A program made the position numbers and the translations under genes. Under the pieces are notes generated by a model. It was not told where the DNA came from and searched no databases. It saw only the letters and a list, made by a program, of their open reading frames with translations. A stretch of DNA of 64,000 nucleotides from an uncultured Fibrobacterota bacterium (GTDB lineage: Bacteria; Fibrobacterota; CAYVZU01): the NCBI GenBank assembly GCA_964455935.1, contig CAYVZU010000008.1, forward strand, positions 299 through 64,298, in the 5' to 3' direction. Positions 2,915 to 37,190 of the stretch are shown here, in pieces. Each line of letters opens with the position of its first letter. The first letter of the stretch is position 1.

Positions 2915-4215
2915 CAGCCGCCGTAGTGGGGGAGCCGTGTCCAGTTCATCCAGCCTTGAATCAGGATCAGCAGCGCCACGCCGGCAATCCAGAACGATTT
3001 TCCACGGAGCCCAAGGCGCTCCGCGAGGATCCATTCCAATCCCTTTGCCGCCAGGGCAAAGCAAAGAACCATGGAGTGAAGCCCGTACACCGCGTGAAGC
3101 CTGTTGATAAAGAAGTAAAACCCAAAATCAGCGGCAAAGAAGACAGCGATCAGCGCGATAAGCTTTGTGCTTCCAGCCCGAATAAACGCGTATAGACCAA
3201 TGGCCATCAGAGCCATTTGCGCATATCCCGTGTTCTCCCACAGCACCTGGCACCAGCCCCTACCAAAACGAAGAAGCTCCCTGGCCAATGAGGCCGAGGA
3301 TTGCAGCGACCCGACCCAGATAATTTCGTCATAGCCGCTCACTTCACTGAATTGGTAGGGAATTTCCATTGCGAAGCATGCCAGAATCCAGAGTAGTTGG
3401 GGGACGGCGGCCGCCCCCAGAAACAGGAACACATCCGGCTTCCTTCGAAAAACAGCGTAGAGCGCCGCACCCGCCAAAAATGTGCTGGCCGCCTGTTTGC
3501 CCAAAAAAAGAATCCCCAACACAGCCGCAAAGATTGCCAGGCGGCCGCGACTTATTTTGCCAAACGAGGCTTCGGACCAAAATGCAAGACTTGCCGTGGT
3601 GATCAGTATCTCCAGGCAGCCATATTGAATTTCGCGGAGACTGAGAATCACAATCGGGGTCGCTAGCAGAATGATTCCGGAGAACAGGGCCGCTATCTCG
3701 CCCAGAAATTTGCGGCAGAAATGGACATATGCCAGCACAGCCAAAGCCAGGAAAACAACATTCAAATCAAGCCAGAGAAAATACGTGGCCAAAGTGTCTA
3801 CTGCGCTCCAGGCACCCCATTGGACCGAGTGCCAGCGGACCGGCAAATGATCGAGAACAAGCGGCCGGATCGCGAACTCCCGTACCAGGGCCGTGAGTCC
3901 CGCAACCAAGGGACGATTGACGCGCAGAGTGAAATCCCGCAATATCCACGGAAAACCCAGAGACGAAATGAGTTCGCCGGGTCCATCCATGTTGGTTTGA
4001 TAATAGATCGGAAAGAGCCGCGGATGCGTCACATAGACTTTGGGATGAACTCTCGAAAACATGGGCAGGACAAGAGATAGAGCAAAAACCGCCAGCAGCA
4101 GCAGGCCCATAAGCGCATACGGCCAACGGCCCAACAACCGCTTCTTTTTGGTGTTGTTCGTCCGGATGGCCGCTTCCGGACTCTGTTTGTGCGCAACGCT
4201 GGATGCCGTTTCCAT
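2914..4215 (-). CDS. Polytopic integral membrane protein, putative GT-C-like, function unknown
   Basis: Highly hydrophobic 433 aa. The ATG at 4215 overlaps the upstream stop (ATGA). Confidence 0.55.
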   Translation of the reverse strand: METASSVAHKQSPEAAIRTNNTKKKRLLGRWPYALMGLLLLAVFALSLVLPMFSRVHPKVYVTHPRLFPIYYQTNMDGPGELISSLGFPWILRDFTLRVNRPLVAGLTALVREFAIRPLVLDHLPVRWHSVQWGAWSAVDTLATYFLWLDLNVVFLALAVLAYVHFCRKFLGEIAALFSGIILLATPIVILSLREIQYGCLEILITTASLAFWSEASFGKISRGRLAIFAAVLGILFLGKQAASTFLAGAALYAVFRRKPDVFLFLGAAAVPQLLWILACFAMEIPYQFSEVSGYDEIIWVGSLQSSASLARELLRFGRGWCQVLWENTGYAQMALMAIGLYAFIRAGSTKLIALIAVFFAADFGFYFFINRLHAVYGLHSMVLCFALAAKGLEWILAERLGLRGKSFWIAGVALLILIQGWMNWTRLPHYGG

Positions 4216-18238: not shown

Positions 18239-18982
18239 ATGCTCAATTACCACGATCTGGCCACTCACGAGAACGAGCTCAGCGATGATTACCTGCTTCA
18301 TTGTCTTCTGCGAGCCCGCGTCGAGACCCACCATGAAACCGAAGAGGACGAAGACGTTAATGTTTATCTCGTGAACCTGCTTGGCCAGTACATGCGGGCC
18401 GAGTTCGTGGATCATGTCGGCGAGTACCTCTCAAAGTTCGATACCGTGATCTCGGAAAAGGTGCGCCAGCACAATGACACCGTCTATACCTATTATACCT
18501 ACAAGGCCAACGCGGATTTTTATCTTCTGGGCCTGAGCATCTTTGGCGGGCTCGAAAACAAGCGGGTGCCCGAAGCGCTGCGCCTGACCGAAAAGAACTT
18601 CGCCGACAGAGGCAAAGCCTATTACTCTTTTGCCGCCGATCTGAACCGGCAGGTCTTTCACAAAGTGACGGCCGTCTGCGGAATTTTGGCGAAATTGTCC
18701 AAATCCTTTCCCGTTTACCTCGAGGTCCTTCATCATGTCAAAGACCGATACTTTCATATCGAGGATCGGGTCATGAGCGAGGGCGAATGGTTCCACCTCG
18801 AACGGGAAATCAACCACGAGTCCGACAAGGTTCTTTTCAAGGAGAAGATCGACGTTCTTCTGGACCTCTACTCCTCATATCAAAAAGAGCCCGATCCCCA
18901 TACGCGCAAGCGGATTTTGGAGCTTGTGGCCGAACTCAAATCGCATGATCCCAAATTCGATTTTCCGATCGAGAAGTTATAG
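18239..18982 (+). CDS. Hypothetical protein
   Basis: ORF with TATAAT at about 18174 and a GGGGG RBS. No family recognised. Confidence 0.45.
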   Translation: MLNYHDLATHENELSDDYLLHCLLRARVETHHETEEDEDVNVYLVNLLGQYMRAEFVDHVGEYLSKFDTVISEKVRQHNDTVYTYYTYKANADFYLLGLSIFGGLENKRVPEALRLTEKNFADRGKAYYSFAADLNRQVFHKVTAVCGILAKLSKSFPVYLEVLHHVKDRYFHIEDRVMSEGEWFHLEREINHESDKVLFKEKIDVLLDLYSSYQKEPDPHTRKRILELVAELKSHDPKFDFPIEKL

Positions 18983-19268: not shown

Positions 19269-20078
19269 TCACCCGTATCGTCCTTCGATGTAGTCGGCTG
19301 TTTTGGGGTTCTGGGGCTTGATGAAAAGCTCTTCTGTGCGGGTGTGTTCGATCACTTCGCCCAGGAGCATGAAAATGCACTCGTCGCTGGCGCGGCGGGC
19401 CTGGGCCATGTTGTGCGTTACGATCGCAATTGTGTAGTTCCCCCGCAGCTTAAACATCAATTCCTCAATGGCCCGCGTGCCTTCCACGTCCAGCGAGGAA
19501 CACGGCTCGTCCATCAAGATCACTTCGGGCTTCAACGGAAGCAGGCGCGCGATACAAAGTTTCTGCTGCTGTTCCAATTGAAGCGTCGTGGCCCTGGCGG
19601 AGAGACGATCCTTGACATCCTTCCAAAGTCCCACCTCGGTTAGCGCGGTTTCGACCGCTTCGTCAAGTTGGGATTTTTGCAGTTGCATGCGCGGCGTGTG
19701 GACGCGAAGCCCAAAAACAACATTCTCGTAAACCGAAATGGGCAAGGGATTGGGTCGCTGAAAGACCATACCCACGCATTTGCGCAGTTCGATCAGCGAA
19801 ACGTCGGCATCATAGATGTTCTTGCCCAGAATTTCGATAACGCCCGCAGTGCGAACGTAGCTATAGCGCTCATTGATTCGGTTGAAGCACCGGAGCAACG
19901 TGGTTTTGCCGCATCCACTGGGGCCGATTAGAGACGTAATCAGGCCGTGCTTGATTTGCACGCTTACATTCTTAAGCGCCTGGAATTTGCCATACCACAG
20001 GTTCAGGTCCCGGGTGATAATGCTGTGAGGGCGTGGGGCATTCATGAAGTTATCCAAAAATACCATTGACATATTCAT
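19269..20078 (-). CDS. pstB: Phosphate ABC transporter ATPase PstB paralog with a degenerate signature motif
   Basis: Walker A GPSGCGKTT, Q-loop GMVFQRPNP, Walker B ILMDEPCSSLD and H-loop VTHNMAQA are all canonical. The signature reads LQLEQQQKL instead of LSGGQ. Confidence 0.85.
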   Translation of the reverse strand: MNMSMVFLDNFMNAPRPHSIITRDLNLWYGKFQALKNVSVQIKHGLITSLIGPSGCGKTTLLRCFNRINERYSYVRTAGVIEILGKNIYDADVSLIELRKCVGMVFQRPNPLPISVYENVVFGLRVHTPRMQLQKSQLDEAVETALTEVGLWKDVKDRLSARATTLQLEQQQKLCIARLLPLKPEVILMDEPCSSLDVEGTRAIEELMFKLRGNYTIAIVTHNMAQARRASDECIFMLLGEVIEHTRTEELFIKPQNPKTADYIEGRYG

Positions 20079-20823
20079 ACGTTTCCCGTCGGGCGGGCTT
20101 GTTGGAAAAAATCACAGCCGTGCGGTCCAGTTCCACGATTTCCCCATTCCACATAAACATCGTGCGGTCGGCCAGCCGCCGGGCCTGGTGGGTAAGATTT
20201 GTCACCAGCAGAATGGTAATCTCTTTGCGGAGTTCTTTGAGAACATCCTCGATGCGCATGGTGGTAACCGGATCGATCGCGATGGAGAATTCGTCGAGGC
20301 ACAAAATTTCCGGCTGGTGCGACAAGGCCCGCGCAATGGTCAGACGCTGCTGCTGGCCGCCCGAAAGTGCCGTTCCCAGACTGTTCAGCCGATCTTTCAC
20401 CTCGTCCCACAGAGCGGCCTGTGTCAGGCATCGTTCCACAATTTCGTCAAGATCGTTTCTTCGTGTAAGGCCGGCGCTGCGGGGCGCGAAAGCGACATTG
20501 TCATAAATACTTAACGGCAGGCCCACGGGAAGCGGGGCGACCATGCCGATCTTGCGCCGCAGGGCATGCACATCTCTTACGCGGCGAATATCTTCACCAT
20601 CAACCCGGATTGTCCCCGACACCAGCGCATTGGCCGTGAAATCGATGGTCCGGTTGAGGCAGCGCAGTAGTGAGGTTTTTCCCGACTGGGCCGGCCCGAT
20701 AATACTGAAGATCTCGTTGCGGTTCACATCGAAGCTGATCCCGTGGATCGCCTCGATCCCGCCGTAACTGACCCGCAGATCACGGACCTCGATCGCCTTG
20801 GGCTCTGTCATGGCGTTTCCCAT
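20050..20823 (-). CDS. pstB: Phosphate ABC transporter ATPase PstB paralog with a canonical signature but degenerate Q/H-loops
   Basis: Signature LSGGQQQRL and Walker A GPAQSGKTS. The Q-loop glutamine is absent (GMVAPLP). Walker B region reads ILCLDEFSIAID. H-loop region reads VTNLTHQA. Confidence 0.85.
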   Translation of the reverse strand: MGNAMTEPKAIEVRDLRVSYGGIEAIHGISFDVNRNEIFSIIGPAQSGKTSLLRCLNRTIDFTANALVSGTIRVDGEDIRRVRDVHALRRKIGMVAPLPVGLPLSIYDNVAFAPRSAGLTRRNDLDEIVERCLTQAALWDEVKDRLNSLGTALSGGQQQRLTIARALSHQPEILCLDEFSIAIDPVTTMRIEDVLKELRKEITILLVTNLTHQARRLADRTMFMWNGEIVELDRTAVIFSNKPARRETYEYVNGIFG

Positions 20824-20834
20824 TTTGTCCGCTC

Positions 20835-20973
20835 TTCACCACAGAGACACAGAGGACACAGAGGACACAGAGAAGAAATATTCATGGCATTCCAATGCGA
20901 ATGACAGTATTTCCAATAATCCGCTTTATAATTTTGCTTTTCCATCTCTGTGATCTCCGTGCTCTGTGGTGAA
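20835..20973. repeat. MITE-like element with perfect 12-bp terminal inverted repeats TTCACCACAGAG / CTCTGTGGTGAA, inserted between pstA and pstB
   Basis: Terminal inverted repeats at 20835..20846 and 20962..20973. Internally GACACAGAG occurs 3 times in tandem. Confidence 0.6.
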
Positions 20974-20976
20974 TGG

Positions 20977-21888
20977 TCACCATTTCTTCCGGTTGCGCAG
21001 CCACACGCGCAGGGCAATGGCGCTGGCATTGACCAGCAGCACGGAACCCAGAAGGACAACGGCGGTCGCGTAGGGAATCGACTCCTTCACGTTGGGCACC
21101 TGTGTGGCCATTGTGTAGAGGTGCATGGAAAGCGCCATGCACTGCTCCGTTAGTTTATAGGGGAACAGATCCCCACGCTCGACCACCTTGAAAAAGACCG
21201 CGCCCGTAAACATGATGGGCGCGGTTTCGCCGGCAGCCCGGCTCACCTGGAGGATGATGCCGGTTAAGATTCCGCTGATCGAGTTAGGCAGAACAATGGC
21301 CTTGATTGTCTGCCAGCGCGTTGCCCCCACATTCCAGCATGCCTCGCGAAACGATTTGGGAACGGAAGCCAGCGCTTCGCGCGTGCTGGCGATGATGACC
21401 GGCAGAGTCATGATGGAAAGGGTGAGGGCGGCCGAGATAATGGAATAGCCAAAGCGCGCCGCATAGACAAAGGCTCCAAGCCCAAACAAAGCGTGTACAA
21501 TGCTGGGCACGCCCGCCAGGTTGATCACGGCGAGGTTGATGATGCGGTTGAACCAGTTGTCTTTGGCATACTCGTTCAGATAAATGGCAGCCATCACGCC
21601 CACGGGCGCCGAGACTGCAAGGGAGATTCCCACCAGGTATAAAGTTCCTACAAAGGCCGGCCAAATGCCTCCTTCGCGCATGCCGCTTCTGGGAATGTCG
21701 ATGAGAAACTCCAGATTCAGCGACGGCGCGGCGCGCACCAGGAGGTAGGCCACAATCGCGACCAGGGGAATCACCATCATCAGGGCCATTGCCCAGAAAA
21801 CCCATTTGGCAATGGACTGGGTCAGTTCCTTGCGGCCGCCATATGCGGTTTGCCGGAATCGAGTTACCGTATGGGTATTTTCGGCCAT
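20977..21888 (-). CDS. pstA: Phosphate ABC transporter permease PstA
   Basis: Start taken at MAENTH (21888). The ORF-track extension to 22209 overlaps pstC. EAA-like loop and PstA-like TM layout. Confidence 0.8.
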   Translation of the reverse strand: MAENTHTVTRFRQTAYGGRKELTQSIAKWVFWAMALMMVIPLVAIVAYLLVRAAPSLNLEFLIDIPRSGMREGGIWPAFVGTLYLVGISLAVSAPVGVMAAIYLNEYAKDNWFNRIINLAVINLAGVPSIVHALFGLGAFVYAARFGYSIISAALTLSIMTLPVIIASTREALASVPKSFREACWNVGATRWQTIKAIVLPNSISGILTGIILQVSRAAGETAPIMFTGAVFFKVVERGDLFPYKLTEQCMALSMHLYTMATQVPNVKESIPYATAVVLLGSVLLVNASAIALRVWLRNRKKW

Positions 21889-21893
21889 TAACT

Positions 21894-22826
21894 CTATTTT
21901 CTCCGGATGCCGCGAATGACGAAATCCGCGGTCAGGTTTACGGCAAAGGTAATGCAGAACAGCAGAACCCCGGTCAGAAACAGCACGCGGTAGTGATCGG
22001 ACCCGGCCGGCGCTTCGCCCAGTTCGGCGGCGATGTTGGCGGTGAGGGTTCGAATGGAATCGACAAGGCTGACCGGGATTGTGACTGCGTGGCCCGTTGT
22101 CATAAGCACGGCCATCGTCTCCCCCACGGCCCGGCCCACGCCCAGCAGCACAGCCGCCAGAAGCCCGTTTTTGGCCGCGGGCAGCAGCACGCGATAGATG
22201 GTCTGCCACTTCGTGCTTCCCATGGCCAGGGAGGCCTCGCGAAACGAATCGGGCACCGCCTTTAAGGCGTCCTCGCCGATGGAGACAATGATGGGCACGC
22301 TCATCAGGGCCAGAACGATCCCGCCGTTAAGCAGGTTCACGCCCACCGGGGCGCCGGTATATGCGGTAATCAGCTTGCTCATCACCGTGAGGCCGATGAA
22401 GCCCCAGACAACGCTGGGAATTGCGGCCAGCAGCTCAATGACGATCTTTAGCGTCTCCTTCGCCTTCGGGCTGCAGAATTCCGAAATGTAAATGGCGGCG
22501 CCCAGTCCAAACGGCACGGCAATGACCATGGCCAGGGCGGTCACGGCGACACTTCCGACCGTCAGGGCGAAAGTCCCGTAACGAACATGAACGGCCGAGG
22601 TTGGGTACCATTTGGTGCTGAAAAGAAATTCGAGCAGATGAAAATCCTCGCTGACCAGGACCGGCAATGCTTCGCGAAAGATGAAGATGAAAATGGCCAG
22701 GACAAAAATGATCGCACTGACGCCGCTGAGGCGGATCAGGCCTTCCAGCGCTTTCTCACCGGCCACAAGCCATGGGGAACGGGTGGGGCGTTTTCCGTGC
22801 GCGGGAATGGATTTTGATACCATCAT
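21894..22826 (-). CDS. pstC: Phosphate ABC transporter permease PstC
   Basis: Conserved SLAMGSTKWQT..LP block. The start overlaps the pstS stop (ATGATGA). Confidence 0.85.
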   Translation of the reverse strand: MMVSKSIPAHGKRPTRSPWLVAGEKALEGLIRLSGVSAIIFVLAIFIFIFREALPVLVSEDFHLLEFLFSTKWYPTSAVHVRYGTFALTVGSVAVTALAMVIAVPFGLGAAIYISEFCSPKAKETLKIVIELLAAIPSVVWGFIGLTVMSKLITAYTGAPVGVNLLNGGIVLALMSVPIIVSIGEDALKAVPDSFREASLAMGSTKWQTIYRVLLPAAKNGLLAAVLLGVGRAVGETMAVLMTTGHAVTIPVSLVDSIRTLTANIAAELGEAPAGSDHYRVLFLTGVLLFCITFAVNLTADFVIRGIRRK

Positions 22827-23740
22827 GAGCGCGAGGCAATTCCTGTATTGTTGTCAGGCACAGGCACGAATCCGCTTTCCTCCACGATCTTCTGCCCGGC
22901 CGGTGATAAAATCCAGTCGATGTACTTGCGGACCGCGCCATGGGGCTGACCCAAGGTGTAGAGCAACAGCGATCGGGCGAGGGGGTAGGTTTTATTTTGC
23001 GTGTTCTCCACGGTCGGCGCGTAGGCCGGTTGGCCGGCTGCCGCCGCGATGTTGAGCATTTTCACCGTTCCCATTGCGTATCCCATGCCGCTGTAACCAA
23101 TAGCGGTCCGGGCGCTTCCGATCAGTTCGACCGTTTCTTTGGAGCCGCTCATGTCGCGCGAACCGAGTTTGAAATCCTTGCTGTGGAGGACGCGCTCGCG
23201 AAAAAACTCGTAGGTTCCGGAACTGGACTGTCGGCTTACCCGCACGATCCTGTCGTCTTTCACACCGGGAATGGTGACGCCCAGCTGCGACCAATTTGTG
23301 ATATCGCCACCGTCGGCAAAGATCCGGGCCAATTGTTCGAACGTGATGTCGATGAGCGGATTCTCTTTGTGCACGTAAACGGCCAAGGCGTCGAACGCGG
23401 CGATGAATTCAACCGGATCCTTGCCGGTGTGTTCCTTGGCCCGCGCAATTTCCTTCGCTTTCATATTGCGGCTGGCATTGGCGATATCCACGGCCCCGCG
23501 TTCCAAGGCGGCAATGCCCACGCCCGAGCCGCCGCCGGACACTTCGATTTCCACGGAGGGCTCGACCCGCTTGTATTGCTCGGCCCAGGCCTGGGCCAGG
23601 TTGACGATTGTATCCGAGCCTTTGACCTGAATGACGGTCCCCGACCGGTTCCCGCGGTTGTTTCCGCAGCCCAGCAACAACAGCAGACCGGCGAAGCCCA
23701 GGGCGAGACGGGTGCGCGTTGCGAAGGATAGGGCCGGCAT
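22823..23740 (-). CDS. pstS: Periplasmic phosphate-binding protein PstS, lipoprotein
   Basis: Start taken at MPALSF (23740), giving a signal peptide plus LLGCG lipobox. PBP-like VIQVKGSDT motif. Confidence 0.85.
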   Translation of the reverse strand: MPALSFATRTRLALGFAGLLLLLGCGNNRGNRSGTVIQVKGSDTIVNLAQAWAEQYKRVEPSVEIEVSGGGSGVGIAALERGAVDIANASRNMKAKEIARAKEHTGKDPVEFIAAFDALAVYVHKENPLIDITFEQLARIFADGGDITNWSQLGVTIPGVKDDRIVRVSRQSSSGTYEFFRERVLHSKDFKLGSRDMSGSKETVELIGSARTAIGYSGMGYAMGTVKMLNIAAAAGQPAYAPTVENTQNKTYPLARSLLLYTLGQPHGAVRKYIDWILSPAGQKIVEESGFVPVPDNNTGIASRS

Positions 23741-23744
23741 TTTT

Positions 23745-24869
23745 CTATCTGGTTTCCGTACCCAGAATTGCCTGCACAAGATCGACAATGTGGGAATTGA
23801 TGAACTGGAATGCGGCATCGTACGAGGCCCGTACTTTCTCGGACGGCCCCTGGACCAGGGAGGGGTCCTCGATGTTCCAATCGAGCAGGACGACTTTGCG
23901 CGGCGATTGCGGCAAAGCCTTGTGCACCTCTTTGGACAGGATAATGATGACCTGATAATATTCGAGATTGGGGATCTGGTAGATTGATTTTGGCGCGGTC
24001 CGTTCGAGATTGAATCCCTTCTCCTTCATATATTCTATCGTGCGGGCGTCCACCGGCTTGGGTTCCAGTCCCGCGCTGCTAAAAATGAAGCGGGGCTGGT
24101 TGAGACCGCTGGCAATGGCCTCGGCCATTTGGCCGCGGCAGGAATTGTGGTTGTCGACAAACAAGATTCGGAATGCCTGCGAGGCCGGGTGCTTGGCAAC
24201 CTCGCCGGTCACCATGTATATCGCTTCCATGCAGATGTTGCGGGCCTGGTCGGAAACCCGTTCAAATCGCCGGACCAGGGTCATGAGGGGATCGAACACA
24301 TCAAACGGGATTTTCTGCTCCTGGAACTCCCGCACAATGTTGTTGTTGAGCTTGTTTCGCATGGCATTGACAGCCTCCTCCACCCCGAAGGTGGCGCGGG
24401 CCAGGTCGGCATTTTGCTCGAAAAGAGACTGGGTCGCATCCTGGTACATGGTGATGGCGAGCTTGGCCAGCTCCAGGATTCCCTGCTTAATTTCGGCCGG
24501 GGCCCGGTTTTCGAGCCGCAGGATGTTGTGGGCGATACTTTCGGCATAATCGCCGACCCGTTCCAGCTCAAGATTAATGCGGATTGTGGTGTAAGCGAAA
24601 CGGAGCGGACGGGCAACCGGTTGTTGGCGCACAAGGAATTCGAGGCAGAGCCGGTCGATCTCCTTTTCCTTCTCGTTGATGTATTGGTCGCGCAGGATCA
24701 CGGCATAGGCGAGCTGCCGATTATTCTCAACAAGGGCCTTTACGCAGTCTTGCAGGGCCTTTTCGGCCAGCTTGGCCATTTCGGTCACCTGGTTGCGGAT
24801 TCTAGAGATATCACGCTCAAGGGATTCTTCCAAGTGCGTATGCATAGTCCTCCGTAGTCCCTCCAACAC
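23745..24869 (-). CDS. PhoU domain fused to an LMWP (ArsC / low-molecular-weight phosphatase)-like domain
   Basis: The N-terminal ~220 aa are PhoU-like repeats. The C-terminal domain ILFVDNHNSCRGQMAEAI aligns to the ArsC/LMW-PTP P-loop (C-x-G-N-x-C-R) with the nucleophile Cys replaced by Asp. A later DP motif (EDPS) is present. Confidence 0.75.
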   Translation of the reverse strand: MLEGLRRTMHTHLEESLERDISRIRNQVTEMAKLAEKALQDCVKALVENNRQLAYAVILRDQYINEKEKEIDRLCLEFLVRQQPVARPLRFAYTTIRINLELERVGDYAESIAHNILRLENRAPAEIKQGILELAKLAITMYQDATQSLFEQNADLARATFGVEEAVNAMRNKLNNNIVREFQEQKIPFDVFDPLMTLVRRFERVSDQARNICMEAIYMVTGEVAKHPASQAFRILFVDNHNSCRGQMAEAIASGLNQPRFIFSSAGLEPKPVDARTIEYMKEKGFNLERTAPKSIYQIPNLEYYQVIIILSKEVHKALPQSPRKVVLLDWNIEDPSLVQGPSEKVRASYDAAFQFINSHIVDLVQAILGTETR

Positions 24870-25124: not shown

Positions 25125-25823
25125 ATGGCAAAGCTCAGCGTACTTATTATTGAAGACGAAGAGCCCATTGCGGAGCTCATCCGGTATAATCTGGAGAGGG
25201 AAGGATACTTAGTTGCAACGGCTTTCTCCGGTGAAGAAGCCTTGCTTGAAGTCGACGTCCGGCCCACCCACTTGGTGCTTCTGGATCTAATGTTGCCCGG
25301 CATTGACGGGCTTGAAGTCTGCCGCCGGCTGAAGGCCAACCCCAAAACAGCCGCTATCCCGGTGATCATGCTTACGGCCAAAGGCGAGGAGTCCGATATT
25401 GTGACCGGCCTGGAATTGGGGGCCGATGATTACATGGTGAAGCCGTTCAGCCCCAAGATTCTTGTCGCGCGCATCCGGGCCGTTTTGCGTCGCAAGACGT
25501 CAACCACGTTCCGGGCCGAGACCCTGAGTATACACAACATGATCATCCATTCGGGCCGGCATGAAGTTACGGTGTCGAACCGGAAAATCGACCTGTCGGC
25601 GGCGGAGTTTCGCATTCTCCATTTTCTCGCGAGCCGGCCGGGGTGGGTCTTCACCCGGGGCCAGATCGTCGATGCCGTAAAGGGCGAGAACTATCCGGTC
25701 ACGGACCGATCCGTGGATGTGGCGCTGGTCGCCTTGCGCAGGAAGCTTGGTTCCGCGGCGGAATATATTGAGACGGTCCGCGGGGTGGGATATCGGTTCC
25801 GTGAGCCGGAGGAATGGCAATAG
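25125..25823 (+). CDS. phoB: OmpR-family response regulator PhoB
   Basis: Receiver domain (D..LLDLMLPG) plus a winged-helix (RVDVALVALRRKL). Confidence 0.9.
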   Translation: MAKLSVLIIEDEEPIAELIRYNLEREGYLVATAFSGEEALLEVDVRPTHLVLLDLMLPGIDGLEVCRRLKANPKTAAIPVIMLTAKGEESDIVTGLELGADDYMVKPFSPKILVARIRAVLRRKTSTTFRAETLSIHNMIIHSGRHEVTVSNRKIDLSAAEFRILHFLASRPGWVFTRGQIVDAVKGENYPVTDRSVDVALVALRRKLGSAAEYIETVRGVGYRFREPEEWQ

Positions 25824-28279: not shown

Positions 28280-29797
28280 ATGAGAAAGATCCTTTCATTA
28301 TTCGTGGTTCTTGGCCTGACGGGGACTGTTCTGGCGCAGGCCCTGGACACCGCCGCGGCGGCAGACGAAAGCCGGACGGCCGCAAACCAAGAGCGGCTCA
28401 AGTCATTGGAGGGCAAAGCTGACGGTCTCAACAAGTCCTACTTGGAAACCAAATCCACCGTTGACAAGCTGGCAAAAATCAAGATTTCAGGCTACATTCA
28501 GACTCAAGCGCGCATGCCTACGGACTATGATGCGGCCACGGATTCAAGCCTCACCCATTCCGCCTGGGGCAAGTATCAGTACAAGGTGGGCGACTTCGCC
28601 GGCGGTGCCTTTTCCGATCGGGTTTCGAGCGCATTCGAAGTTCGTCGCGGCAGAGTTAAAATCGCCTATGAAACGGCATTGAGCATGGCTGTTGCGCAGC
28701 TCGATATTATCCCCTTTAGGTCCGCCAATTTTCTTCAAAGCGTGACCACAACAACAACGCGTGACACAATAGCCGACAGCCTGGGTGTCAACCATGTCGT
28801 AACCCGGTCCGCCACAACAACATCAACCAGCAGCGCGGCCCTCACCGGCGGCGGTGTTAGCGTGAAGGATATTTATCTGAGATTCACCGAGCGCTGGTAC
28901 AAGAGCTTCGCGCTTAAAATGGGTATTTTCGACAGGCCCTTTGGCTTTGAAATCGGCTACAGTTCCAGTTCCCGCGAATCGCCCGAGCGCTCCAGGGCCG
29001 AGCAGACCCTGTTCCCCGGCGAGCGCGATTTGGGCGTTTCACTTGAATACTTACCCGCGGACAACATGCCGGTTTGGGCTCAGCATTTGAATTTTAAGGG
29101 CGGCTTCTTTACTGGAAACGGGATTAACGTGGAAACCGACGGTAAGCGCGACTTCATTGGCCGGCTGGGCGTTACCTTCCCGTTTAATGAGCTGAACTTC
29201 GCGGTTGACGGTGGCGCCTCCCTCTACAATGGCTCGGTCCTTTCCCAGAACGATTCGGTTTTTGAAATCAGCGGCACATCCTTTGCGCCGGAAACCGGTA
29301 ATAAGAATGAATATATCGACCACCGGTACTTTGGCGGCGATGTGCAAATCTATTACGGAAATACCCCGGTCATTGGTGGAACCACGTTGCGCCTGGAAGG
29401 ATACGTAGGCTCCCAGCCCGGTTCCAAGACCAGCAATTCCTCTCCAAAATCCGACATGCCCAGCTCGGCCCAGATTTACAAACGCAATTTTCTGGGCGGC
29501 TATGTTATGCTGGTTCAAAACCTCGATCCCATTAAAAGCCAGCTTGCGCTCCGCTATGATTGGTTTGATCCGAATACGGAAATCGAGGGGACACAGGTCA
29601 GTTTTCAGGAAACCCAGACCACCGACCAGAGATACGGTACGCTGGGGATTGGCGAGGTTTATCACTGGGACGAGAATGTGAAATTCATCGCTTACCTCGA
29701 CAAGATTTCTAACGAGGAAATCACGGATAGCCGGGCGATCTTTACCGATGATGTTGAGGACAACGTTTTCACTTTCCGTGTCCAATACAAATTCTAA
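28280..29797 (+). CDS. Phosphate-selective porin O/P family outer-membrane protein
   Basis: Signal peptide, N-terminal coiled-coil, beta-rich body, and a C-terminal aromatic residue (..QYKF). Sits immediately upstream of pstS. Confidence 0.7.
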   Translation: MRKILSLFVVLGLTGTVLAQALDTAAAADESRTAANQERLKSLEGKADGLNKSYLETKSTVDKLAKIKISGYIQTQARMPTDYDAATDSSLTHSAWGKYQYKVGDFAGGAFSDRVSSAFEVRRGRVKIAYETALSMAVAQLDIIPFRSANFLQSVTTTTTRDTIADSLGVNHVVTRSATTTSTSSAALTGGGVSVKDIYLRFTERWYKSFALKMGIFDRPFGFEIGYSSSSRESPERSRAEQTLFPGERDLGVSLEYLPADNMPVWAQHLNFKGGFFTGNGINVETDGKRDFIGRLGVTFPFNELNFAVDGGASLYNGSVLSQNDSVFEISGTSFAPETGNKNEYIDHRYFGGDVQIYYGNTPVIGGTTLRLEGYVGSQPGSKTSNSSPKSDMPSSAQIYKRNFLGGYVMLVQNLDPIKSQLALRYDWFDPNTEIEGTQVSFQETQTTDQRYGTLGIGEVYHWDENVKFIAYLDKISNEEITDSRAIFTDDVEDNVFTFRVQYKF

Positions 29798-29851: not shown

Positions 29852-30673
29852 ATGCGGAAAATTCTTGTCCTGCTGAGCATGGTCTTGTTGAGCGCACTGG
29901 CCTTCGGCAAGACCGTGATCACAGTAAAAGGCTCCGACACCATGGTTATCCTGGCCCAGCGCTGGGCCGAGATGTATATGGCCGCTCATCCCGATGTGAC
30001 GGTGCAGGTCACGGGTGGCGGATCGGGAACCGGAATTTCGGCCCTCATCAATGGCACTACGGATATCTGCAATGCTTCCCGACCCATGAAGGGAAGCGAA
30101 CGGGAGAAACTCAAACAGCGCTATAACTCTCTGGGCGTGGAAATTAAGGCGGCCAAGGACGGGCTTTCCGTCTATCTGAACGAAGACAATACAGTTACGG
30201 AACTAAGTTTGGCCCAGATTCGCAGCATCTACCTGGGCAGCATTACAAACTGGAAAGAGGTGGGCGGCAACGATGCCAAAATCATCCTTTATGGCCGTGA
30301 AAACAATTCAGGGACCTACGTTTATTTCCGGGATTTCGTCCTCAAGGGCCAGGACTTTTCGCCTCAGACCCAGACATTGCCGGGAACGGCCGCGGTCGTA
30401 AATGCGGTCGCAAAAGATAAAAACGGGATCGGCTATGGCGGCGCTGCTTATGCCAAGGGCATTCGCTTCGCCCAGGTCAAGGCTGACGAGAACAGCCCCG
30501 GATACGAGCCCAACGCCGAAAATGTCAAAAAGAACCTGTATCCGATCAGCCGGTATCTCTATCTGTACACCCGAAGCAGGCCTACGGGTGAAGTGAAGAA
30601 ATACATCGACTGGATCCTGAGCCCCGAAGGCCAATCCGTTGTCGAGAAGGTCGGATATTTCCCGGTGCGATAA
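29852..30673 (+). CDS. pstS: Phosphate-binding protein PstS (second system)
   Basis: Signal peptide. TVKGSDTM..GGGSGTG PBP motifs. Confidence 0.9.
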   Translation: MRKILVLLSMVLLSALAFGKTVITVKGSDTMVILAQRWAEMYMAAHPDVTVQVTGGGSGTGISALINGTTDICNASRPMKGSEREKLKQRYNSLGVEIKAAKDGLSVYLNEDNTVTELSLAQIRSIYLGSITNWKEVGGNDAKIILYGRENNSGTYVYFRDFVLKGQDFSPQTQTLPGTAAVVNAVAKDKNGIGYGGAAYAKGIRFAQVKADENSPGYEPNAENVKKNLYPISRYLYLYTRSRPTGEVKKYIDWILSPEGQSVVEKVGYFPVR

Positions 30674-30735
30674 TGGATCGAGTCTGTTCAGCGCCCCCTT
30701 CCCATCCTTCCCCCGCAGGGGGCAGGTGCTTAAGG

Positions 30736-30770
30736 AAGTCCCCCTACGGGGGATTTAGGGGGCGTTTTAC
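30736..30770 (+). terminator. GC hairpins between pstS and pstC (attenuator/terminator-like)
   Basis: CCCCCGCAGGGGG and CCCCCTACGGGGG stems, followed by ATTT. Confidence 0.4.
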
Positions 30771-30775
30771 CAGCG

Positions 30776-31795
30776 GTGGAAGCCAAGATGAATTTTCGTA
30801 GGCTCCGGCTTCGCATTGCCGAATTCATTGCCGAGAAGGCGATTTTCGCGATTGCGCTCTTCTCGCTGGCCTGTATTGTCCTGATCTTCGTGTTCGTGTT
30901 TCGCGAAGCCGCAACCCTGTTTGTTAATCGATCTCCTGCATCATCCCAAAACGCACTGGAGCAGCAGGAAACCTACGGTGACGAGGGTCTGGAAGATTCT
31001 CCCCCGCCTGATGAATTGGTCGAGAAGGAAAAGGCGATCCGCTTTCGGGACTTGTGGTGCACGATCTGGCAGCCCGTGTCGTTGCACCCGCGATACGGGC
31101 TTCTGCCGCTTCTGGCCGGCAGTCTGAAGGTGACGTTGATTGCGATTCTTTTCGGTGCGCCGATCGCGATTCTAGCCGCGCTCTTTACAATAGCCTTTGC
31201 GCCGCGCTGGTCCAAGGAAATTCTGAAGCCGGCGATCGAGATTTTGTCGGGGTTTCCCTCCGTGGTGATCGGCTTCTTTGCTCTCGTTGTCATGGCCTCC
31301 TTTCTCCAGAAGCTTTTTGGACTGGAGTACCGGCTAAACGCATTCGTAGGCGGGCTTGCGCTTTCGCTGGCCGTCATTCCCATCATCTACACGATCTCCG
31401 AGGATTCTCTTTCGGCCGTTCCCAAGTCTCTGAGCGAGGCGAGCCTTGCCCTGGGGGCAGCCAAGTGGGAAACCGTGCTGTTCGTGATGCTGCCCGCGGC
31501 CACGCCCGGCATTTTCGCCGCGATCCTCCTTGGCTTTGGCCGTGCCTTTGGCGAAACCATGATCGTGCTGATGGCCACGGGCAATGCAGCGCTTCTTTCG
31601 TTCGATGTACTGGAGCCTGTGCGCACCATGTCGGCCACCATTGGCGCGGAAATGGCCGAGGTGGTCTTTGGCGATACACATTACAGCGTTCTCTTTATGA
31701 TTGGCGCCATCCTATTTGTCATCTCCTTCGGACTCAATGCAATAGCCGAGGTGTTCGTGCGCCAGCGTTTGATGAAACGATTCAAAGGTGGATAA
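30776..31795 (+). CDS. pstC: Phosphate ABC transporter permease PstC
   Basis: GTG at 30776 (ATG at 30788). EAA-like loop SLALGAAKWETV. Confidence 0.9.
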   Translation: MEAKMNFRRLRLRIAEFIAEKAIFAIALFSLACIVLIFVFVFREAATLFVNRSPASSQNALEQQETYGDEGLEDSPPPDELVEKEKAIRFRDLWCTIWQPVSLHPRYGLLPLLAGSLKVTLIAILFGAPIAILAALFTIAFAPRWSKEILKPAIEILSGFPSVVIGFFALVVMASFLQKLFGLEYRLNAFVGGLALSLAVIPIIYTISEDSLSAVPKSLSEASLALGAAKWETVLFVMLPAATPGIFAAILLGFGRAFGETMIVLMATGNAALLSFDVLEPVRTMSATIGAEMAEVVFGDTHYSVLFMIGAILFVISFGLNAIAEVFVRQRLMKRFKGG

Positions 31796-32698
31796 GTGAG
31801 GTTTAGGAAATCATTGTACGGCGCCTCGGTCTTTGGAATCACGGCCTTTTGCGCGGGTATTATTTTGACCGCCCTGGTGATCATGATGACCACCATTGTC
31901 CTGGGCGGCTACAAGCATATCACATGGACATTCCTGACCGCGGCGCCTGCGGAGGGCATGACCGCCGGCGGGATCTTCCCGGCCATTGTGGGAACATTCT
32001 GGCTTGTACTGCTCATGTCCCTGGCCGGCGTGCCGGTGGGCACGGCCACAGCCCTTTACCTGTGCGAATACGTCCGCCAGCGATCGATCATCGTGCGCGC
32101 CATCCGTTTCGCCGTCAACACCCTGGCGGGAATCCCATCCATCGTTTTCGGGCTCTTTGGCCTGGGATTTTTTATCCAGTTCGTGGGAAAAAGCGCCGAT
32201 TCGCTGCTGTTGGGACCCGGCGTGGTGAAATGGGGACAGCCCAATCTGCTATGGGCCAGTCTCACCATGGCCGTCCTCACCCTGCCCGTGGTGATTGTCT
32301 CGGTGGAGGAGGCCATCAAGAACATGCCGCAAGAATATCGCGAGGCAAGCTTCGCCCTGGGCGCGACCAAGTGGCAGACAATTCGGCAGGTGGTCATTCC
32401 TCATTCCCTCACCGGTATGTTCACGGGCAGCATTCTGGCAATCAACAGAGGCGCAGGCGAGGTCGCTCCCATTCTCTTCACCGGAGTGGCCTACTTCCTT
32501 CCGCACCTTCCCTCGGATTTATCGGACCAGTTCATGCACCTGGGCTATCACGTCTATATCATGGCAACGCAATCAACCAACGTGGAGCAGACAATGGGAA
32601 TCCAGTACGCGACCACTCTCGTGCTGCTGTTTCTGGCCTTCACGCTGAACCTGGGGGCCATTTTGCTGCGGTATCGGATTCGGAGGAGGATGGCCTAG
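31796..32698 (+). CDS. pstA: Phosphate ABC transporter permease PstA
   Basis: GTG start directly after the pstC stop. SFALGATKWQTI motif. Confidence 0.9.
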   Translation: MRFRKSLYGASVFGITAFCAGIILTALVIMMTTIVLGGYKHITWTFLTAAPAEGMTAGGIFPAIVGTFWLVLLMSLAGVPVGTATALYLCEYVRQRSIIVRAIRFAVNTLAGIPSIVFGLFGLGFFIQFVGKSADSLLLGPGVVKWGQPNLLWASLTMAVLTLPVVIVSVEEAIKNMPQEYREASFALGATKWQTIRQVVIPHSLTGMFTGSILAINRGAGEVAPILFTGVAYFLPHLPSDLSDQFMHLGYHVYIMATQSTNVEQTMGIQYATTLVLLFLAFTLNLGAILLRYRIRRRMA

Positions 32699-32716
32699 CA
32701 TGGCCGGAACACCATA

Positions 32717-33475
32717 ATGAGCGCCTATAAGACAATAATCCGCAATTTGAACTTCTTTTACGGAAGCCAACAGGCTCTTTTCGACATCACCATGGATATT
32801 GAGCCGTTTCAGGTCACGTCGCTGATCGGACCTTCGGGGTGCGGCAAATCCACATTTCTGCGCACGCTCAACCGCATGAATGATCTAATCGAGAATACCC
32901 GGGTCACCGGCGAGGTGATCGTCGACGGCCAGGACATTTATGGCAAGAAGGTGGATGTCGTGGCCTTGCGAAAGAAGGTTGGAATGGTCTTTCAGAAATC
33001 AAACCCATTCCCAAAAACAATTTTCGACAATGTCGCCTTCGGCCCCAGAATTCACGGGATTCACAACACAAACCGGCTTAACGAAATCGTGGAGAGCTGC
33101 CTGCTCCGGTCGGGCCTTTGGGATGAGGTCAAAGATCGGCTGCACACAAGCGCACTGGGTCTCTCGGGCGGTCAGCAGCAGCGGTTGTGCATCGCGCGCG
33201 CCCTGGCCGTGGACCCGGCAATTTTGCTGATGGATGAACCCGCTTCGGCCCTTGACCCGCGCTCGACCGCTAAGATCGAGGATCTGATTGCCGAATTGCG
33301 GAAGAACTATACCATCATCATTGTCACGCACAACATGCAGCAGGCCTCGCGCGTTTCCGATATCACGGCCTTCTTCTACGAGGGCCGCCTCATTGAAATG
33401 GGGCCAACCCGAAAGATCTTCACGAAACCCGACATCAAACAAACCGAAGACTATATCACCGGAAGATTTGGATAA
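32717..33475 (+). CDS. pstB: Phosphate ABC transporter ATPase PstB (fully canonical)
   Basis: Walker [10 protein letters not shown], signature LSGGQQQRL, Walker [12 protein letters not shown] and H-loop VTHNMQQA are all canonical. Confidence 0.95.
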
Positions 33476-33488
33476 GCGAGGAACCACC

Positions 33489-34169
33489 ATGGCAGTCCAC
33501 ATGCGCCGCGAGATCGACAAACTTAATCAGCAACTGCTTGAGCTTGGTACGCGGGTCGAAGAGGCGGTTGTGGCGGCCATTGCCGCCGTGGAGGAACAGG
33601 ACGTCGAGTCCGCCCGGCAGGTGATCCAAAACGACGAGCGAATCGATCGCAGTGAAATTGAGGTGGAAGAGGAATGCCTCAAGATTCTTGCCCTTTATCA
33701 GCCCGTGGCCATTGATCTCCGGTTCATTGTCGCGGTACTCAAGATCAACGGCGATTTGGAGAGGATTGGCGATCTGGCCGTTAATATCGCCGAACGGGCC
33801 ATGCTCCTGGCGTCCAAAGATGCGCCTTCCGTCGACTTCGATTTCCATCGAATGTCCCAGGAAGCCCTGGCCATGCTCAAGCAAAGCCTGGACGCACTGG
33901 TCAACATGGATGCCAACTTGGCCTATCGAGTCCTGAAATCCGATGATGAAATTGATTCTTTAAACCGCCAGAATTACGACAAAGTCATGTACGCTATCAA
34001 CAGCAATGCCCAGCACGCCAAGATCATGATCCATTACCTGAGCATTTCCCGTTTTCTCGAACGCCTGGCGGACCATGCCACCAATATTGCGGAAGACGTT
34101 ATCTATCTGGCGACCGGCGAGATCGTGCGCCATGCCGGAGAACAGGACAGGCCGACTTCTAACCCTTGA
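33489..34169 (+). CDS. phoU: Phosphate signalling regulator PhoU
   Basis: Start taken at MAVHMRREI (33489). Two PhoU repeats. Confidence 0.9.
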   Translation: MAVHMRREIDKLNQQLLELGTRVEEAVVAAIAAVEEQDVESARQVIQNDERIDRSEIEVEEECLKILALYQPVAIDLRFIVAVLKINGDLERIGDLAVNIAERAMLLASKDAPSVDFDFHRMSQEALAMLKQSLDALVNMDANLAYRVLKSDDEIDSLNRQNYDKVMYAINSNAQHAKIMIHYLSISRFLERLADHATNIAEDVIYLATGEIVRHAGEQDRPTSNP

Positions 34170-34893: not shown

Positions 34894-36795
34894 TTACAAT
34901 TCAACCCTTGATCCCAATTCCACAACGCGGTTGGGCGGAAGCCCATAAAAGCTTGTAGCGTCAAGAGCGTTGCGCGACATGAATTCGAACAGCTTTTTAC
35001 GCCACATTCGCATTGTGGGATGTTTTCCAATAACCAGCGATTCGCGCCCCAAAAAATAGGTGGTCGTCTCGGGTTTCAAAGCGCTATCCAAACCCGTGAG
35101 ATTCATAAGCGCCGCGGGAATATCGGGTGCCTCAAAAAAGCCGTAGCCGAGAATCACCCGAAAAATCCCATGCCCCAATGAGTCGACCCGCGCGCGCTGC
35201 GAAGCGGCCACATAGGGGATCTCCTGACTTTTTACCGCAAGGATGATCGTTCGTTCGTGCAGAACCATATTGTGCTTAAGATTGTGGAGCAGGGACCCGG
35301 GAACCGCTTCGGCATTGGCCGTTAAAAAAACGGCCGTCCGGGGGACCCGATTGAATTGCGTCACGTGCTCCGGAAGGATGCTTAACGGCATTGCGTTCGC
35401 AAAAATCCTCTTGCGCAAGACCTCCCGGCCGTCGATCCATGTCTTAAAAGAAATGAAGATCGCCGCTGCAATAATCAGCACGATCCATCCGCCGGTTCCA
35501 ATTTTTAGAAGGTTTGAGATAAGAAACGAGCAGTCAACAAGAAAGAATGCCGCAATCAGGGGCACAAGAAATATCCAGCGCTTCTTCCATAGCGCGCGCG
35601 AAACGAGCGCAAGGAGCATGGTTGTGATCAGCATTGTTGCCGAGACCGCGATCCCGTAGGCCCCTGCCAGGCGACCGGACTCTTTAAAACCAAGAATGAG
35701 GGCCAGCGTTCCAAAAAAGAGGCACCAATTCATAAACGGCACGTAAACCTGCCCTATTTCGCTGATTGAGGTATGACGAATCTGCACCCGGGGCCAGAAA
35801 CCAAGAGCCACGGCCTGTTTTGCCAATGAAAATGCGCCGGAGATCACCGCCTGCGATGCAATAACGGTCGCGGCGGTTGCCAAAACCACCATCGGGAGCA
35901 GAGCGCCGGGTGGAACAAGGCGATAAAACAGATTATCGATGGGTCTGTTTGCGCCCAGCAAATAGGCTCCTTGTCCGAAATAATTCAGCAGCAGGCCGGG
36001 AAGAACAATGCCATACCAGGCAAGTCGAATCGGCTTTCGTCCAAAATGACCAAGATCCGCGTAAAGGACTTCGGCCCCGGTAACCGCCAAAAAAACCGAA
36101 CTCAGAGTTTTAAAGCTGTACAGACCATTGCGGTCCAGGAAATCCATGGCAAGGACCGGGTTCAGGGCTGCCAGAATCGAAGGATCCTTTGCTATGGAGA
36201 TTGCGCCCAGCAGCCCCAGAACCAGAAACCAAAGCAAAACAACGGGGCCAAAAAGAGTACCGATTCGCGCGGTTCCTTTTGACTGAACCGCAAAGAGCGC
36301 GGCAAGAGTTCCGATCGCGACGGGAATAACATATGGCTTAAAAAGCGGTGTTGCCACATTCAGCCCTTCCACTGCGCTTAGAACGGAGATTGCCGGCGTT
36401 ATAATGCCGTCGCCAAAAAGCAGGGCGGCCCCAAGAATTCCCATGGAAAGCACCAACAGGGAGTTCTTTTTTCTGGGATCGGCCCGGCCTCGTTCCACAA
36501 GCGTCATGAGGGCCAGAATGCCCCCTTCCCCGTTGTTATCCGCACGCAGAACCAGAAAAACGTACTTAAAGGAAACAATCAGAAGGATGGTCCAAAGCAT
36601 AAGGGACACAACCCCCAATACATTCTCCTTTGTGGCGGGGACCGCGTGCGCGCCTAGGAAACATTCCCGAAGGGCATAGAGCGGACTGGTGCCGATGTCG
36701 CCGAAAACAATGCCCAGTGCAAGAAGGATTAAATGGGGAATTTTGCCCCTTGATTGTTGGTTGGAAACGAAAAATTGAGGTGTGGAAGAAAGCAT
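34894..36795 (-). CDS. kup: KUP/HAK/KT family potassium transporter
   Basis: GDIGTSPLY motif, 12 TM helices and a C-terminal cytoplasmic domain. Confidence 0.9.
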   Translation of the reverse strand: MLSSTPQFFVSNQQSRGKIPHLILLALGIVFGDIGTSPLYALRECFLGAHAVPATKENVLGVVSLMLWTILLIVSFKYVFLVLRADNNGEGGILALMTLVERGRADPRKKNSLLVLSMGILGAALLFGDGIITPAISVLSAVEGLNVATPLFKPYVIPVAIGTLAALFAVQSKGTARIGTLFGPVVLLWFLVLGLLGAISIAKDPSILAALNPVLAMDFLDRNGLYSFKTLSSVFLAVTGAEVLYADLGHFGRKPIRLAWYGIVLPGLLLNYFGQGAYLLGANRPIDNLFYRLVPPGALLPMVVLATAATVIASQAVISGAFSLAKQAVALGFWPRVQIRHTSISEIGQVYVPFMNWCLFFGTLALILGFKESGRLAGAYGIAVSATMLITTMLLALVSRALWKKRWIFLVPLIAAFFLVDCSFLISNLLKIGTGGWIVLIIAAAIFISFKTWIDGREVLRKRIFANAMPLSILPEHVTQFNRVPRTAVFLTANAEAVPGSLLHNLKHNMVLHERTIILAVKSQEIPYVAASQRARVDSLGHGIFRVILGYGFFEAPDIPAALMNLTGLDSALKPETTTYFLGRESLVIGKHPTMRMWRKKLFEFMSRNALDATSFYGLPPNRVVELGSRVEL

Positions 36796-36996: not shown

Positions 36997-37065
36997 TTGG
37001 TTTACCTCCGGTTTTGGGGCATTACGGAGGCAGAACCGGAATGGTTACCTCACAATAACGCTCTC

Positions 37066-37190
37066 CCACATGCCTACGAGGTTAGCTGACGGGCTCGGGC
37101 TTGGAAGTGCCCTATCCTTGACGGAATACGCCCCAAGAGTTGGGTCCCCCGCATCCATGGTTTTCCCATGGATTTCGGCTACATCATTTG
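37066..37190 (-). promoter_or_regulatory. c-di-AMP riboswitch candidate (ydaO/kimA class) in the kup leader
   Basis: The minus-strand RNA contains GAUGCGGGGGACCC, UUGGGGCG..AUUCC and CCCGAGCCCGUCAGCUAACCUCGUAGGC. The last matches the conserved 3' block of the B. subtilis ydaO aptamer as I recall it. Confidence 0.6.

Follow-up and report, generated by a model that had tools for sequence, protein, structure and literature searches.

The 64,000-nucleotide window analysed here, that is, the whole stretch of contig CAYVZU010000008.1 from an uncultured Fibrobacterota bacterium, contains a phosphate transport (pst) operon that ends in two adjacent genes for the ATPase PstB, designated PstB-A and PstB-B below. 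The two products are 39% identical and depart from the family consensus in a complementary fashion: PstB-A combines an intact signature motif with a degenerate core, and PstB-B combines a complete core with a degenerate signature. Judging from these motifs, the two proteins are likely to form an obligate heterodimer with one catalytic site. The genes, delimited from the open reading frame (ORF) list, a three-way alignment, the TIGR00972 profile and an alignment to Escherichia coli PstB, are:

20050..20823, minus strand: PstB-A, degenerate core and intact signature
19269..20045, minus strand: PstB-B, complete core and degenerate signature

Complementary loss of catalytic motifs

The register of the motifs was taken from an alignment of PstB-A, PstB-B and the PstB of a second pst locus in the window, and from phmmer comparisons with the solved E. 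coli PstB (PDB ID: 9k3x), which ran end to end with single-residue gaps at most (E about 1.2e-63 for PstB-A and about 9.5e-77 for PstB-B). In E. coli numbering, the Q-loop of PstB-A (GMVAPLP, 20527-20547) has Pro in place of Q98 and its H-loop (VTNLTHQ, 20185-20205) has Asn in place of H210, while the signature LSGGQ (20353-20367) is intact. The Walker A motif (GPAQSGKT, 20674-20697) retains its Lys (K49) and carries Gln instead of Gly as the fourth residue (G46), a change missing from the initial annotation of this DNA. That annotation had also described the Walker B region as altered, which is correct for the residue that follows the catalytic Glu (Pro replaced by Phe in ILCLDEF, 20287-20307) and for the D-loop (Ser replaced by Ile in IAID, 20272-20283), but not for the Walker B Asp (D178) and the catalytic Glu (E179) themselves, both of which are kept. 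A displaced H-loop, in which the His three residues further on in VTNLTHQ would take over, was considered and ruled out, since this residue is Gln in most relatives.

PstB-B shows the reverse picture. Its Walker A (GPSGCGKT, 19902-19925), Q-loop (GMVFQ, 19758-19772), Walker B (ILMDEP, 19503-19520), D-loop (SSLD, 19488-19499) and H-loop (VTHNM, 19407-19421) are canonical, and its signature reads LQLEQ (19569-19583), corresponding to the substitutions S155Q, G156L and G157E. The central observation of the initial annotation, namely that PstB-A has a canonical LSGGQ without the Q-loop Gln and H-loop His and that PstB-B is canonical in everything except its signature, is thus borne out by the alignment to 9k3x, in which the motifs lie where they had been placed and none is displaced to a canonical position. 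Neither protein possesses a complete catalytic motif set, as PstB-A has no Q-loop Gln or H-loop His and PstB-B no signature Ser-Gly-Gly.

Both proteins are nevertheless members of the PstB family in the broad sense. TIGR00972, the PstB equivalog model, is the best NCBIfam match for each, though the scores of 323.5 bits (PstB-B) and 272.4 bits (PstB-A) fall below its cutoff of 343.2 bits; the PstB of the second locus scores 406.3 bits. Matches to the Pfam family ABC_tran (PF00005; cutoff 25 bits) reach 87.2 bits for PstB-A and 90.4 bits for PstB-B, and both genes share an operon with pstS, pstC and pstA, in the same order as in related loci.

Conservation of the pair and of its gene order

A scan of one genome per species yielded at least 564 candidate loci, and the counts given for related loci are from the best 80 of these. 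The majority belong to Verrucomicrobiota, followed by Acidobacteriota, Fibrobacterota, Myxococcota, Desulfobacterota, Planctomycetota, Lentisphaerota, Methylomirabilota and others. This close A/B family was met only in metagenome-assembled genomes, some of which are assigned to Sorangium sp., Desulfosudis oleivorans and Fibrobacter sp.

The best 120 relatives of PstB-A are 78-86% identical to it, apart from one 100% match that comes from the window's own contig. Nearly all have the Walker A sequence GPAQSGK[TS]; the Q-loop Pro is found in every one (as GMVAPLPVG in 114), as are LSGGQQQRL and VTNL[TV]QQA. The stretch ILCLDEFSIAID is present in the 67 relatives where the scan reached the motif and in 77/77 of the aligned loci. 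The best 120 relatives of PstB-B are 78-87% identical, bar one near-identical entry; the signature is LQLEQQQKL or LMLEQ in nearly all of them, with LSGGQ in one and one unmatched, and the other motifs scanned are canonical in nearly all.

Column counts in a MAFFT alignment of 77 A-type and 80 B-type genes from other genomes gave the same result. A-type genes have the Q-loop Pro (76/76), the H-loop Asn (77/77) and the signature SGG (77/77), together with the Walker B DE (77/77), the Walker A Lys (76/76) and the A-loop Tyr (76/76). All 80 B-type genes have the signature L[QL]LEQ along with a canonical Walker A, Q-loop Gln, Walker B, D-loop and H-loop His. The ATP-binding residues (A-loop aromatic, Walker A Lys/Thr and Walker B Asp/Glu) are kept in about 100% of 197 A-type sequences. 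Mean identity across phyla is 69% among A-type and 76% among B-type proteins, against 62% for the canonical PstBs sampled; A-type and B-type proteins share 37% on average, and either shares 44-49% with canonical PstB. Both families are more conserved than the sampled canonical PstBs and appear to be under purifying selection.

The initial annotation had proposed a survey for paired pstB genes with an LQLEQ-type signature, and such pairs proved to be the rule: PstB-A lies directly 5′ of PstB-B on the same strand in 78/80 related loci. The two exceptions are L064, in which PstB-B is about 100 nucleotides from the contig end, and L076, with about 1.1 kb of sequence upstream of PstB-B. The conserved six-gene module contains no ATPase gene other than the A/B pair. 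The overlap of 29 nucleotides reported initially holds for the longest ORF of PstB-B, which opens at 20078, and not for the likely ATG at 20045, which leaves a gap of 4 nucleotides after the PstB-A stop; the overlap is probably an artefact of the longest ORF, because most relatives of PstB-B (258 aa) start at the equivalent of Met12, that is, of this ATG. The PstB-B ATG overlaps the PstB-A stop as ATGA in 41/76 related junctions. For PstB-A, the probable start is Met5 at 20811. Both ORFs were otherwise confirmed on the minus strand at the coordinates first assigned to them.

Two further observations concern the junction. In ‘Candidatus Zhuqueibacter pondensis’ (L067, 4727..6935), pstB-A and pstB-B are separated by genes for a PhoU_div (DUF47) protein and a PiT-type phosphate transporter (PHO4); in no other locus among those compared do whole genes split the pair. 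Two apparent natural A-B fusions (P0025 and P0250) were rejected as frameshifted calls on fragmentary contigs.

A second lineage with the same hallmarks

An exhaustive search of 1.84 billion cluster representatives with PstB-A retrieved a second A-like group, termed A2, with the motifs GPAGxGKT, GMVFA[TV]PQP, LSGGQ, an ordinary LLDEP and VTNNxKQA, as well as B-like proteins with the signatures LSAEQ or LTEEQ. The 120 relatives compared for one A2 protein all have Ala at the Q-loop position and all retain the Walker A Lys and Walker B DE; the H-loop Asn and the signature LSGGQ are each found in 118/120. Named members come from Polyangiaceae, Gemmatimonadaceae and Sorangium sp. So ce260. In each of the six loci examined, a partner gene (B2) lies 0-25 nucleotides downstream of A2; its signature is LPLEQ, LTSEQ, LSAEQ (twice) or LSGEQ (twice), in an otherwise canonical sequence, and Glu occupies the position of the second signature Gly in all eight B2 genes. 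The 4-6 kb of sequence fetched around the A2/B2 loci showed no canonical pstB.

The signatures grade from LSGEQ to LQLEQ, with the more derived A accompanying the more derived B. Since the same losses recur in A/B and A2/B2, the invariant hallmarks of the whole group are the loss of the Q-loop Gln (E. coli Q98) and the His-to-Asn change (H210) in the A-type protein, and the replacement of the second signature Gly (G157) by Glu in the B-type protein. In a neighbour-joining tree, A, A2 and B were each recovered in 60/60 bootstraps.

The locus of Sorangium sp. So ce260 (L084; complete genome, CP150320.1) encodes, at 3220..5004 of L084, a single permease of 594 aa with BPD_transp_1, which appears to be a PstC-PstA fusion, followed by A2, B2 (LTSEQ) and an ordinary PhoU. 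Separately, six PstB-like cluster representatives (P0295, P0297, P0335, P0390, P0340 and P0365) carry the signatures LSIGQ, LSVGQ, LSQGQ or LSLGQ with their other catalytic motifs normal, and may represent further asymmetric PstB pairs or intermediates.

A predicted asymmetric PstB dimer

When two nucleotide-binding domains (NBDs) dimerise head to tail, the Walker A, Walker B, Q-loop and H-loop of one subunit enclose each ATP together with the signature of its partner. The residues that touch the γ-phosphate or the attacking water are the H-loop His, the Q-loop Gln and the Ser and Gly of the signature. In canonical dimers the H-loop His and the second signature Gly both contact the γ-phosphate, and replacement of this Gly by Asp in CFTR (G551D) abolishes ATP-dependent function. 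The head-to-tail arrangement of ATP sites has been seen for PstB (PMC12976172). In the A:B pair, all degenerate changes map to one composite site, made of the Walker A, Q-loop and H-loop of PstB-A and the signature of PstB-B, and the other composite site is fully consensus save for the D-loop of PstB-A. In an A:A dimer neither site would contain a Q-loop Gln or an H-loop His, and in a B:B dimer both signatures would be broken; only A:B gives a complete site. The initial prediction of one consensus and one doubly degenerate site in this dimer thus follows from the motif mapping, and the comparative data strongly reinforce it. We regard an obligate heterodimer as the best explanation because the genes are adjacent and usually coupled, because the module encodes no other ATPase and because the complementarity is found in two lineages.

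In the mechanism that we propose, PstB-A and PstB-B would be the two different NBD subunits of one Pst importer consisting of PstS, PstC, PstA, PstB-A and PstB-B. They would be produced in equal amounts from their adjacent, usually translationally coupled genes; each would dock on one permease coupling helix, and together they would form the usual head-to-tail dimer. Site 1, composed of the Walker A and B motifs, Q-loop Gln and H-loop His of PstB-B and the LSGGQ and D-loop of PstB-A, would be a complete ATPase site that provides the power stroke. Site 2, composed of the P-loop of PstB-A and the LQLEQ of PstB-B and with neither a Q-loop Gln nor an H-loop His, would serve as a stable hinge or a regulatory site, so that each cycle would cost the pump about one ATP. 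Nucleotide binding at site 2 is probably preserved, because PstB-A keeps the A-loop aromatic, the Walker A Lys/Thr and the Walker B Asp/Glu, and the site has probably lost hydrolysis at a useful rate, because the Gln, the His and the signature are all gone. Heterodimerisation, nucleotide binding without hydrolysis at site 2 and the use of one ATP per cycle are all read from motifs, conservation and gene linkage.

Several points weigh against this proposal. Support for the A:B complex comes from gene linkage and ATGA coupling and is not physical. PstB-A retains the catalytic Glu, which is unusual in degenerate sites, and residual hydrolysis at site 2 is possible. The fourth Walker A residue of A-type proteins is Gln or Asn and the B-type signature places a Glu at the seat of the γ-phosphate, so that site 2 may hold ADP or nothing. 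The presence of a canonical pstB in the same genome would allow mixed pairings. Finally, the deep nodes of the tree are weak (A+A2 in 25/60 and B+B2 in 32/60 bootstraps).

Operon context

The remaining features of the operon and of the second pst locus are:

23745..24869, minus strand: PhoU-LMWPc fusion gene at the operon head, with two PhoU domains (Pfam PhoU, 8.6e-32) and an LMWPc domain (1.5e-13)
22823..23740, minus strand: pstS, phosphate-binding protein (Pfam PBP_like_2, 2.3e-38), likely start at 23740
21894..22826, minus strand: pstC, permease (Pfam BPD_transp_1), 64-83% identical to related loci
20977..21888, minus strand: pstA, permease (Pfam BPD_transp_1), likely start MAENTH at 21888, longest ORF to 22209
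20824..20980, minus strand: intercistronic spacer of 157 nucleotides between pstA and pstB-A, with inverted repeats and an RNA fold
29852..34169, plus strand: second pst locus, a comparator outside the A/B system, with pstS (29852-30673), pstC (30776-31795) and pstA (31796-32698)
32717..33475, plus strand: single-copy pstB of the second locus, with all motifs canonical and a TIGR00972 match

The genes from 24869 down to 19269 (PhoU fusion, pstS, pstC, pstA, spacer, pstB-A and pstB-B) are all co-oriented on the minus strand. The span of 19.3-23.7 kb first given for this operon is right at the downstream end and too short upstream, where the operon extends to 24869 and takes in the PhoU fusion gene. 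A gene for a PhoB-like regulator at 25125 is divergent from it. The longest pstS ORF reaches 23818, its product contains a lipobox-like LLLLGC, and PstS of the window is 49-68% identical to its relatives among the loci listed. The description of the second locus as having a single, fully canonical pstB stands; an ORF downstream of that gene, ending at 34169, is a putative phoU.

The PhoU protein of the A/B operon is encoded at its head, not at its tail. The C-terminal domain of the fusion aligns to ArsC structures (PDB IDs: 2l17 and 1jl3), with Asp in place of the nucleophilic Cys (FVDNHNSCRG). The fusion gene lies 5′ of pstS in 65/80 related loci; of the CX5R loops in these 65 fusions, 59 have Asp in place of the Cys and only 35 retain the Arg, from which we conclude that this ArsC/LMW-phosphatase-like domain is a pseudo-enzyme, as judged by its sequence. 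A role as an oxyanion-binding sensor is possible. The fusion is missing from the A2/B2 loci, whose operons are ordinary.

The spacer between pstA and pstB-A is predicted to fold into a long imperfect hairpin (-56.5 kcal/mol, z = -5.1; 0/200 shuffles fold as well) and contains three tandem copies of the 9-nucleotide unit GACACAGAG in the plus-strand reading. It could be a repetitive extragenic palindrome (REP)-like element or an mRNA-processing element, and as such determine how much permease is made relative to ATPase. Repeat-rich spacers are found between pstB-A and pstB-B in some relatives (L004, L010 and L025).

Elsewhere in the window, an ORF of 505 aa directly 5′ of the canonical pstS (28280..29797, plus strand) has a signal-peptide-like N-terminus and no Pfam match, and is possibly an outer-membrane phosphate porin; a relative of it adjoins the A/B module at two other loci. 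An ORF of 247 aa without a Pfam match (18239..18982, plus strand) is convergent with pstB-B. A cyclic di-AMP (c-di-AMP) riboswitch (RF00379, 87.8 bits; 37056..37190, minus strand) is located 5′ of a Kup-type K+ transporter gene (34894..36795, minus strand), which is an ordinary pairing.

Alternative explanations

Site 2 might have been rebuilt as another device, an explanation that we consider possible but unlikely. The signature Glu of PstB-B would take the place of the γ-phosphate and form bonds with PstB-A through its H-loop Asn and Walker A Lys, and the outcome would be a latch holding ADP or no nucleotide, or a report of the cytoplasmic nucleotide or phosphate state to the PhoU-pseudo-ArsC protein. 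The replacements are indeed specific and invariant, with Glu in 80/80 B-type and all eight B2 proteins and Asn in 77/77 A-type and 118/120 A2 proteins, and they fall on two residues, the H-loop His and the second signature Gly, that meet at the γ-phosphate in canonical dimers. The derived A (with Walker A Gln and D-loop Ile) is paired with LQLEQ and the less derived A2 with LSGEQ or LSAEQ, and the PhoU-LMWPc fusion is co-conserved with the close family (65/80 loci). On the other hand, the Walker A, Walker B and A-loop residues that are kept would suit ordinary ATP binding equally well, and covariation of the PstB-A Walker A and Q-loop with the PstB-B signature was looked for within the family and none was seen. 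A link between the PhoU fusion and the degenerate site is not general, as the A2/B2 lineage lacks the fusion, and the idea of a rebuilt site is drawn from sequence alone. Its fullest form, which we rate as quite unlikely, would make site 2 a nucleotide-independent or ADP-specific latch or sensor in which the PstB-B Glu mimics the γ-phosphate and bonds the PstB-A Asn, and which in the close family is read by the PhoU-pseudo-ArsC protein, coupling import to the cytoplasmic phosphate or energy state. Room for such mimicry is left by the catalytic Glu that PstB-A keeps, the Gln in its P-loop and the invariant signature Glu of PstB-B, all three unusual for a degenerate site.

It is very unlikely that PstB-A and PstB-B are not partners at all and act as homodimers, or pair with the canonical PstB of the second locus, serving as alternative motors or as a regulatory pseudo-ATPase. 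A third, canonical pstB is indeed at hand in the window, and tandem PstBs are not always obligate partners, since an excess of PstB2 can replace PstB1 in Enterococcus faecalis (PMC12096839). However, both sites would be defective in an A:A as well as in a B:B dimer, the two genes adjoin in 78/80 loci and are usually translationally coupled, their complementarity is kept in two lineages, and most related loci have no canonical pstB within 7 kb.

The possibility that the A/B module is a phosphate sensor, that is, a Pst-like signalling complex with little or no transport, strikes us as highly improbable. A complete site 1, the integrity and high conservation of PstS, PstC and PstA, and the ordinary A2/B2 operons, with no canonical pstB in the surrounding sequence fetched, outweigh the fusion of PhoU to a pseudo-enzyme at the operon head, the adjacent, divergent gene for a PhoB-like regulator and the additional canonical Pst system in the window. 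Sequencing or assembly errors, or decaying duplicates, have a practically negligible chance of explaining the substitutions: both proteins score under the curated PstB cutoff and the source is a metagenomic contig, but this reading is ruled out by the same substitutions in relatives of both proteins, fixed in hundreds of independent assemblies including the complete Sorangium genome, in ORFs that are intact and full length and whose within-family identity across phyla exceeds that of the sampled canonical PstBs.

Comparison with known transporters

In E. coli, PstB forms a homodimer in which both sites are consensus and one NBD contacts PstA and the other PstC (PMC12976172). The E. coli PstSCAB complex (PDB IDs: 9k3x, 9k3y and 9k3s) represents the same family, encoded at the same operon position after pstA, whereas the window has two subunits of 39% identity, one of which has lost Q98 and H210 and the other of which has Glu for G157. 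The statement in the initial annotation that PstB is normally a homodimer holds for E. coli (PMC12976172), but tandem pstB genes are known in Firmicutes, where the pst operon likewise ends in two adjacent genes, pstB1 and pstB2. In E. faecalis, the tandem paralogs are about 60% identical, both canonical and non-equivalent in function, and the authors stated that no earlier study on tandem pstB paralogs existed (PMC12096839). Set against that description, the window pair, with its 39% identity and complementary degeneracy, is not of the Firmicute PstB1/PstB2 type; because both E. faecalis copies are canonical, the novelty here lies in the degeneracy and not in the duplication. For PstBA and PstBB of Bacillus subtilis, a heterodimer has been modelled and no degeneracy mentioned (PMC11466899).

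Pairs of consensus and degenerate sites are frequent in exporters (PMC3971661), and a role of the degenerate site as a stable hinge has been proposed for TM287/288 (PMC3971661, PMC7756269). The likeness to heterodimeric exporters such as TAP1/2, CFTR and TM287/288 that was suggested initially is apparent in the sequence, the substitutions being split over two NBDs so that one composite site is degenerate. Like the window pair, TM287/288, TAP1/2, CFTR, BmrCD and PatAB have two different NBDs, with one consensus and one non-hydrolytic site (PMC7756269, PMC3971661). In these exporters, however, the NBDs are fused to transmembrane domains and the catalytic Glu is usually replaced, whereas the window pair consists of free NBDs of a type I importer that keep the Glu and have lost the Q-loop Gln, the H-loop His and the opposing signature. 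In Pdr5, the signature facing the dead site is LNVEQ (bioRxiv 10.1101/2021.02.09.430491). Pdr5 and Cdr1 resemble PstB-B in having an L-x-x-E-Q signature at the dead site, with Glu at the second Gly, but as eukaryotic full-length exporters they carry substitutions at many more positions, the Walker A Lys and the Walker B Glu among them. The LxxEQ likeness of Pdr5 and PstB-B is almost certainly convergent. Pdr5 loses transport when canonical motifs are put back.

Among importers, the fused NBDs of RbsA and NupO were the only ATPases noted as degenerate in one survey (PMC11466899). They differ from the window pair in being fused in one polypeptide, in belonging to another importer class and in having a degenerate site that lacks the Walker A Lys, such that ATP binding there is not expected. 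Our literature searches found no publication tying PstB to a degenerate or heterodimeric site. The fused OppD of Mycobacterium tuberculosis OppABCD is said to have a degenerate site, which, if correct, would slightly reduce the novelty for type I importers in general and would take nothing from it for PstB.

Implications

The A/B pair, present in hundreds of genomes from many phyla, has apparently not been described previously. It would represent a known principle, the asymmetric NBD heterodimer, in a family and a transporter class for which this has apparently not been reported, and it has its own set of substitutions. Degenerate ATP sites are regarded as a hallmark of exporters and their purpose is debated; here one is predicted in a binding-protein-dependent type I importer with free NBDs. 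The pair is widespread in environmentally dominant phyla, namely Verrucomicrobiota, Acidobacteriota, Myxococcota, Fibrobacterota and Desulfobacterota. Both proteins are labelled plainly as ‘phosphate ABC transporter ATP-binding protein’, and since both also score under the PstB equivalog cutoff, separate family models for the A-type and B-type proteins are justified.

A tractable carrier of the A2/B2 form is the named strain Sorangium sp. So ce260, whose genome is complete. If site 2 were a latch or sensor, this would be a regulatory principle new to type I ABC importers. Turning back to the heterodimer with one catalytic site, the genome of the window would provide a natural control, as it places a predicted heterodimeric Pst system beside a canonical homodimeric one. 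This would allow one to ask whether one ATP per cycle is enough, what purpose the dead site serves, and whether it alters the energy cost or regulation of phosphate scavenging.

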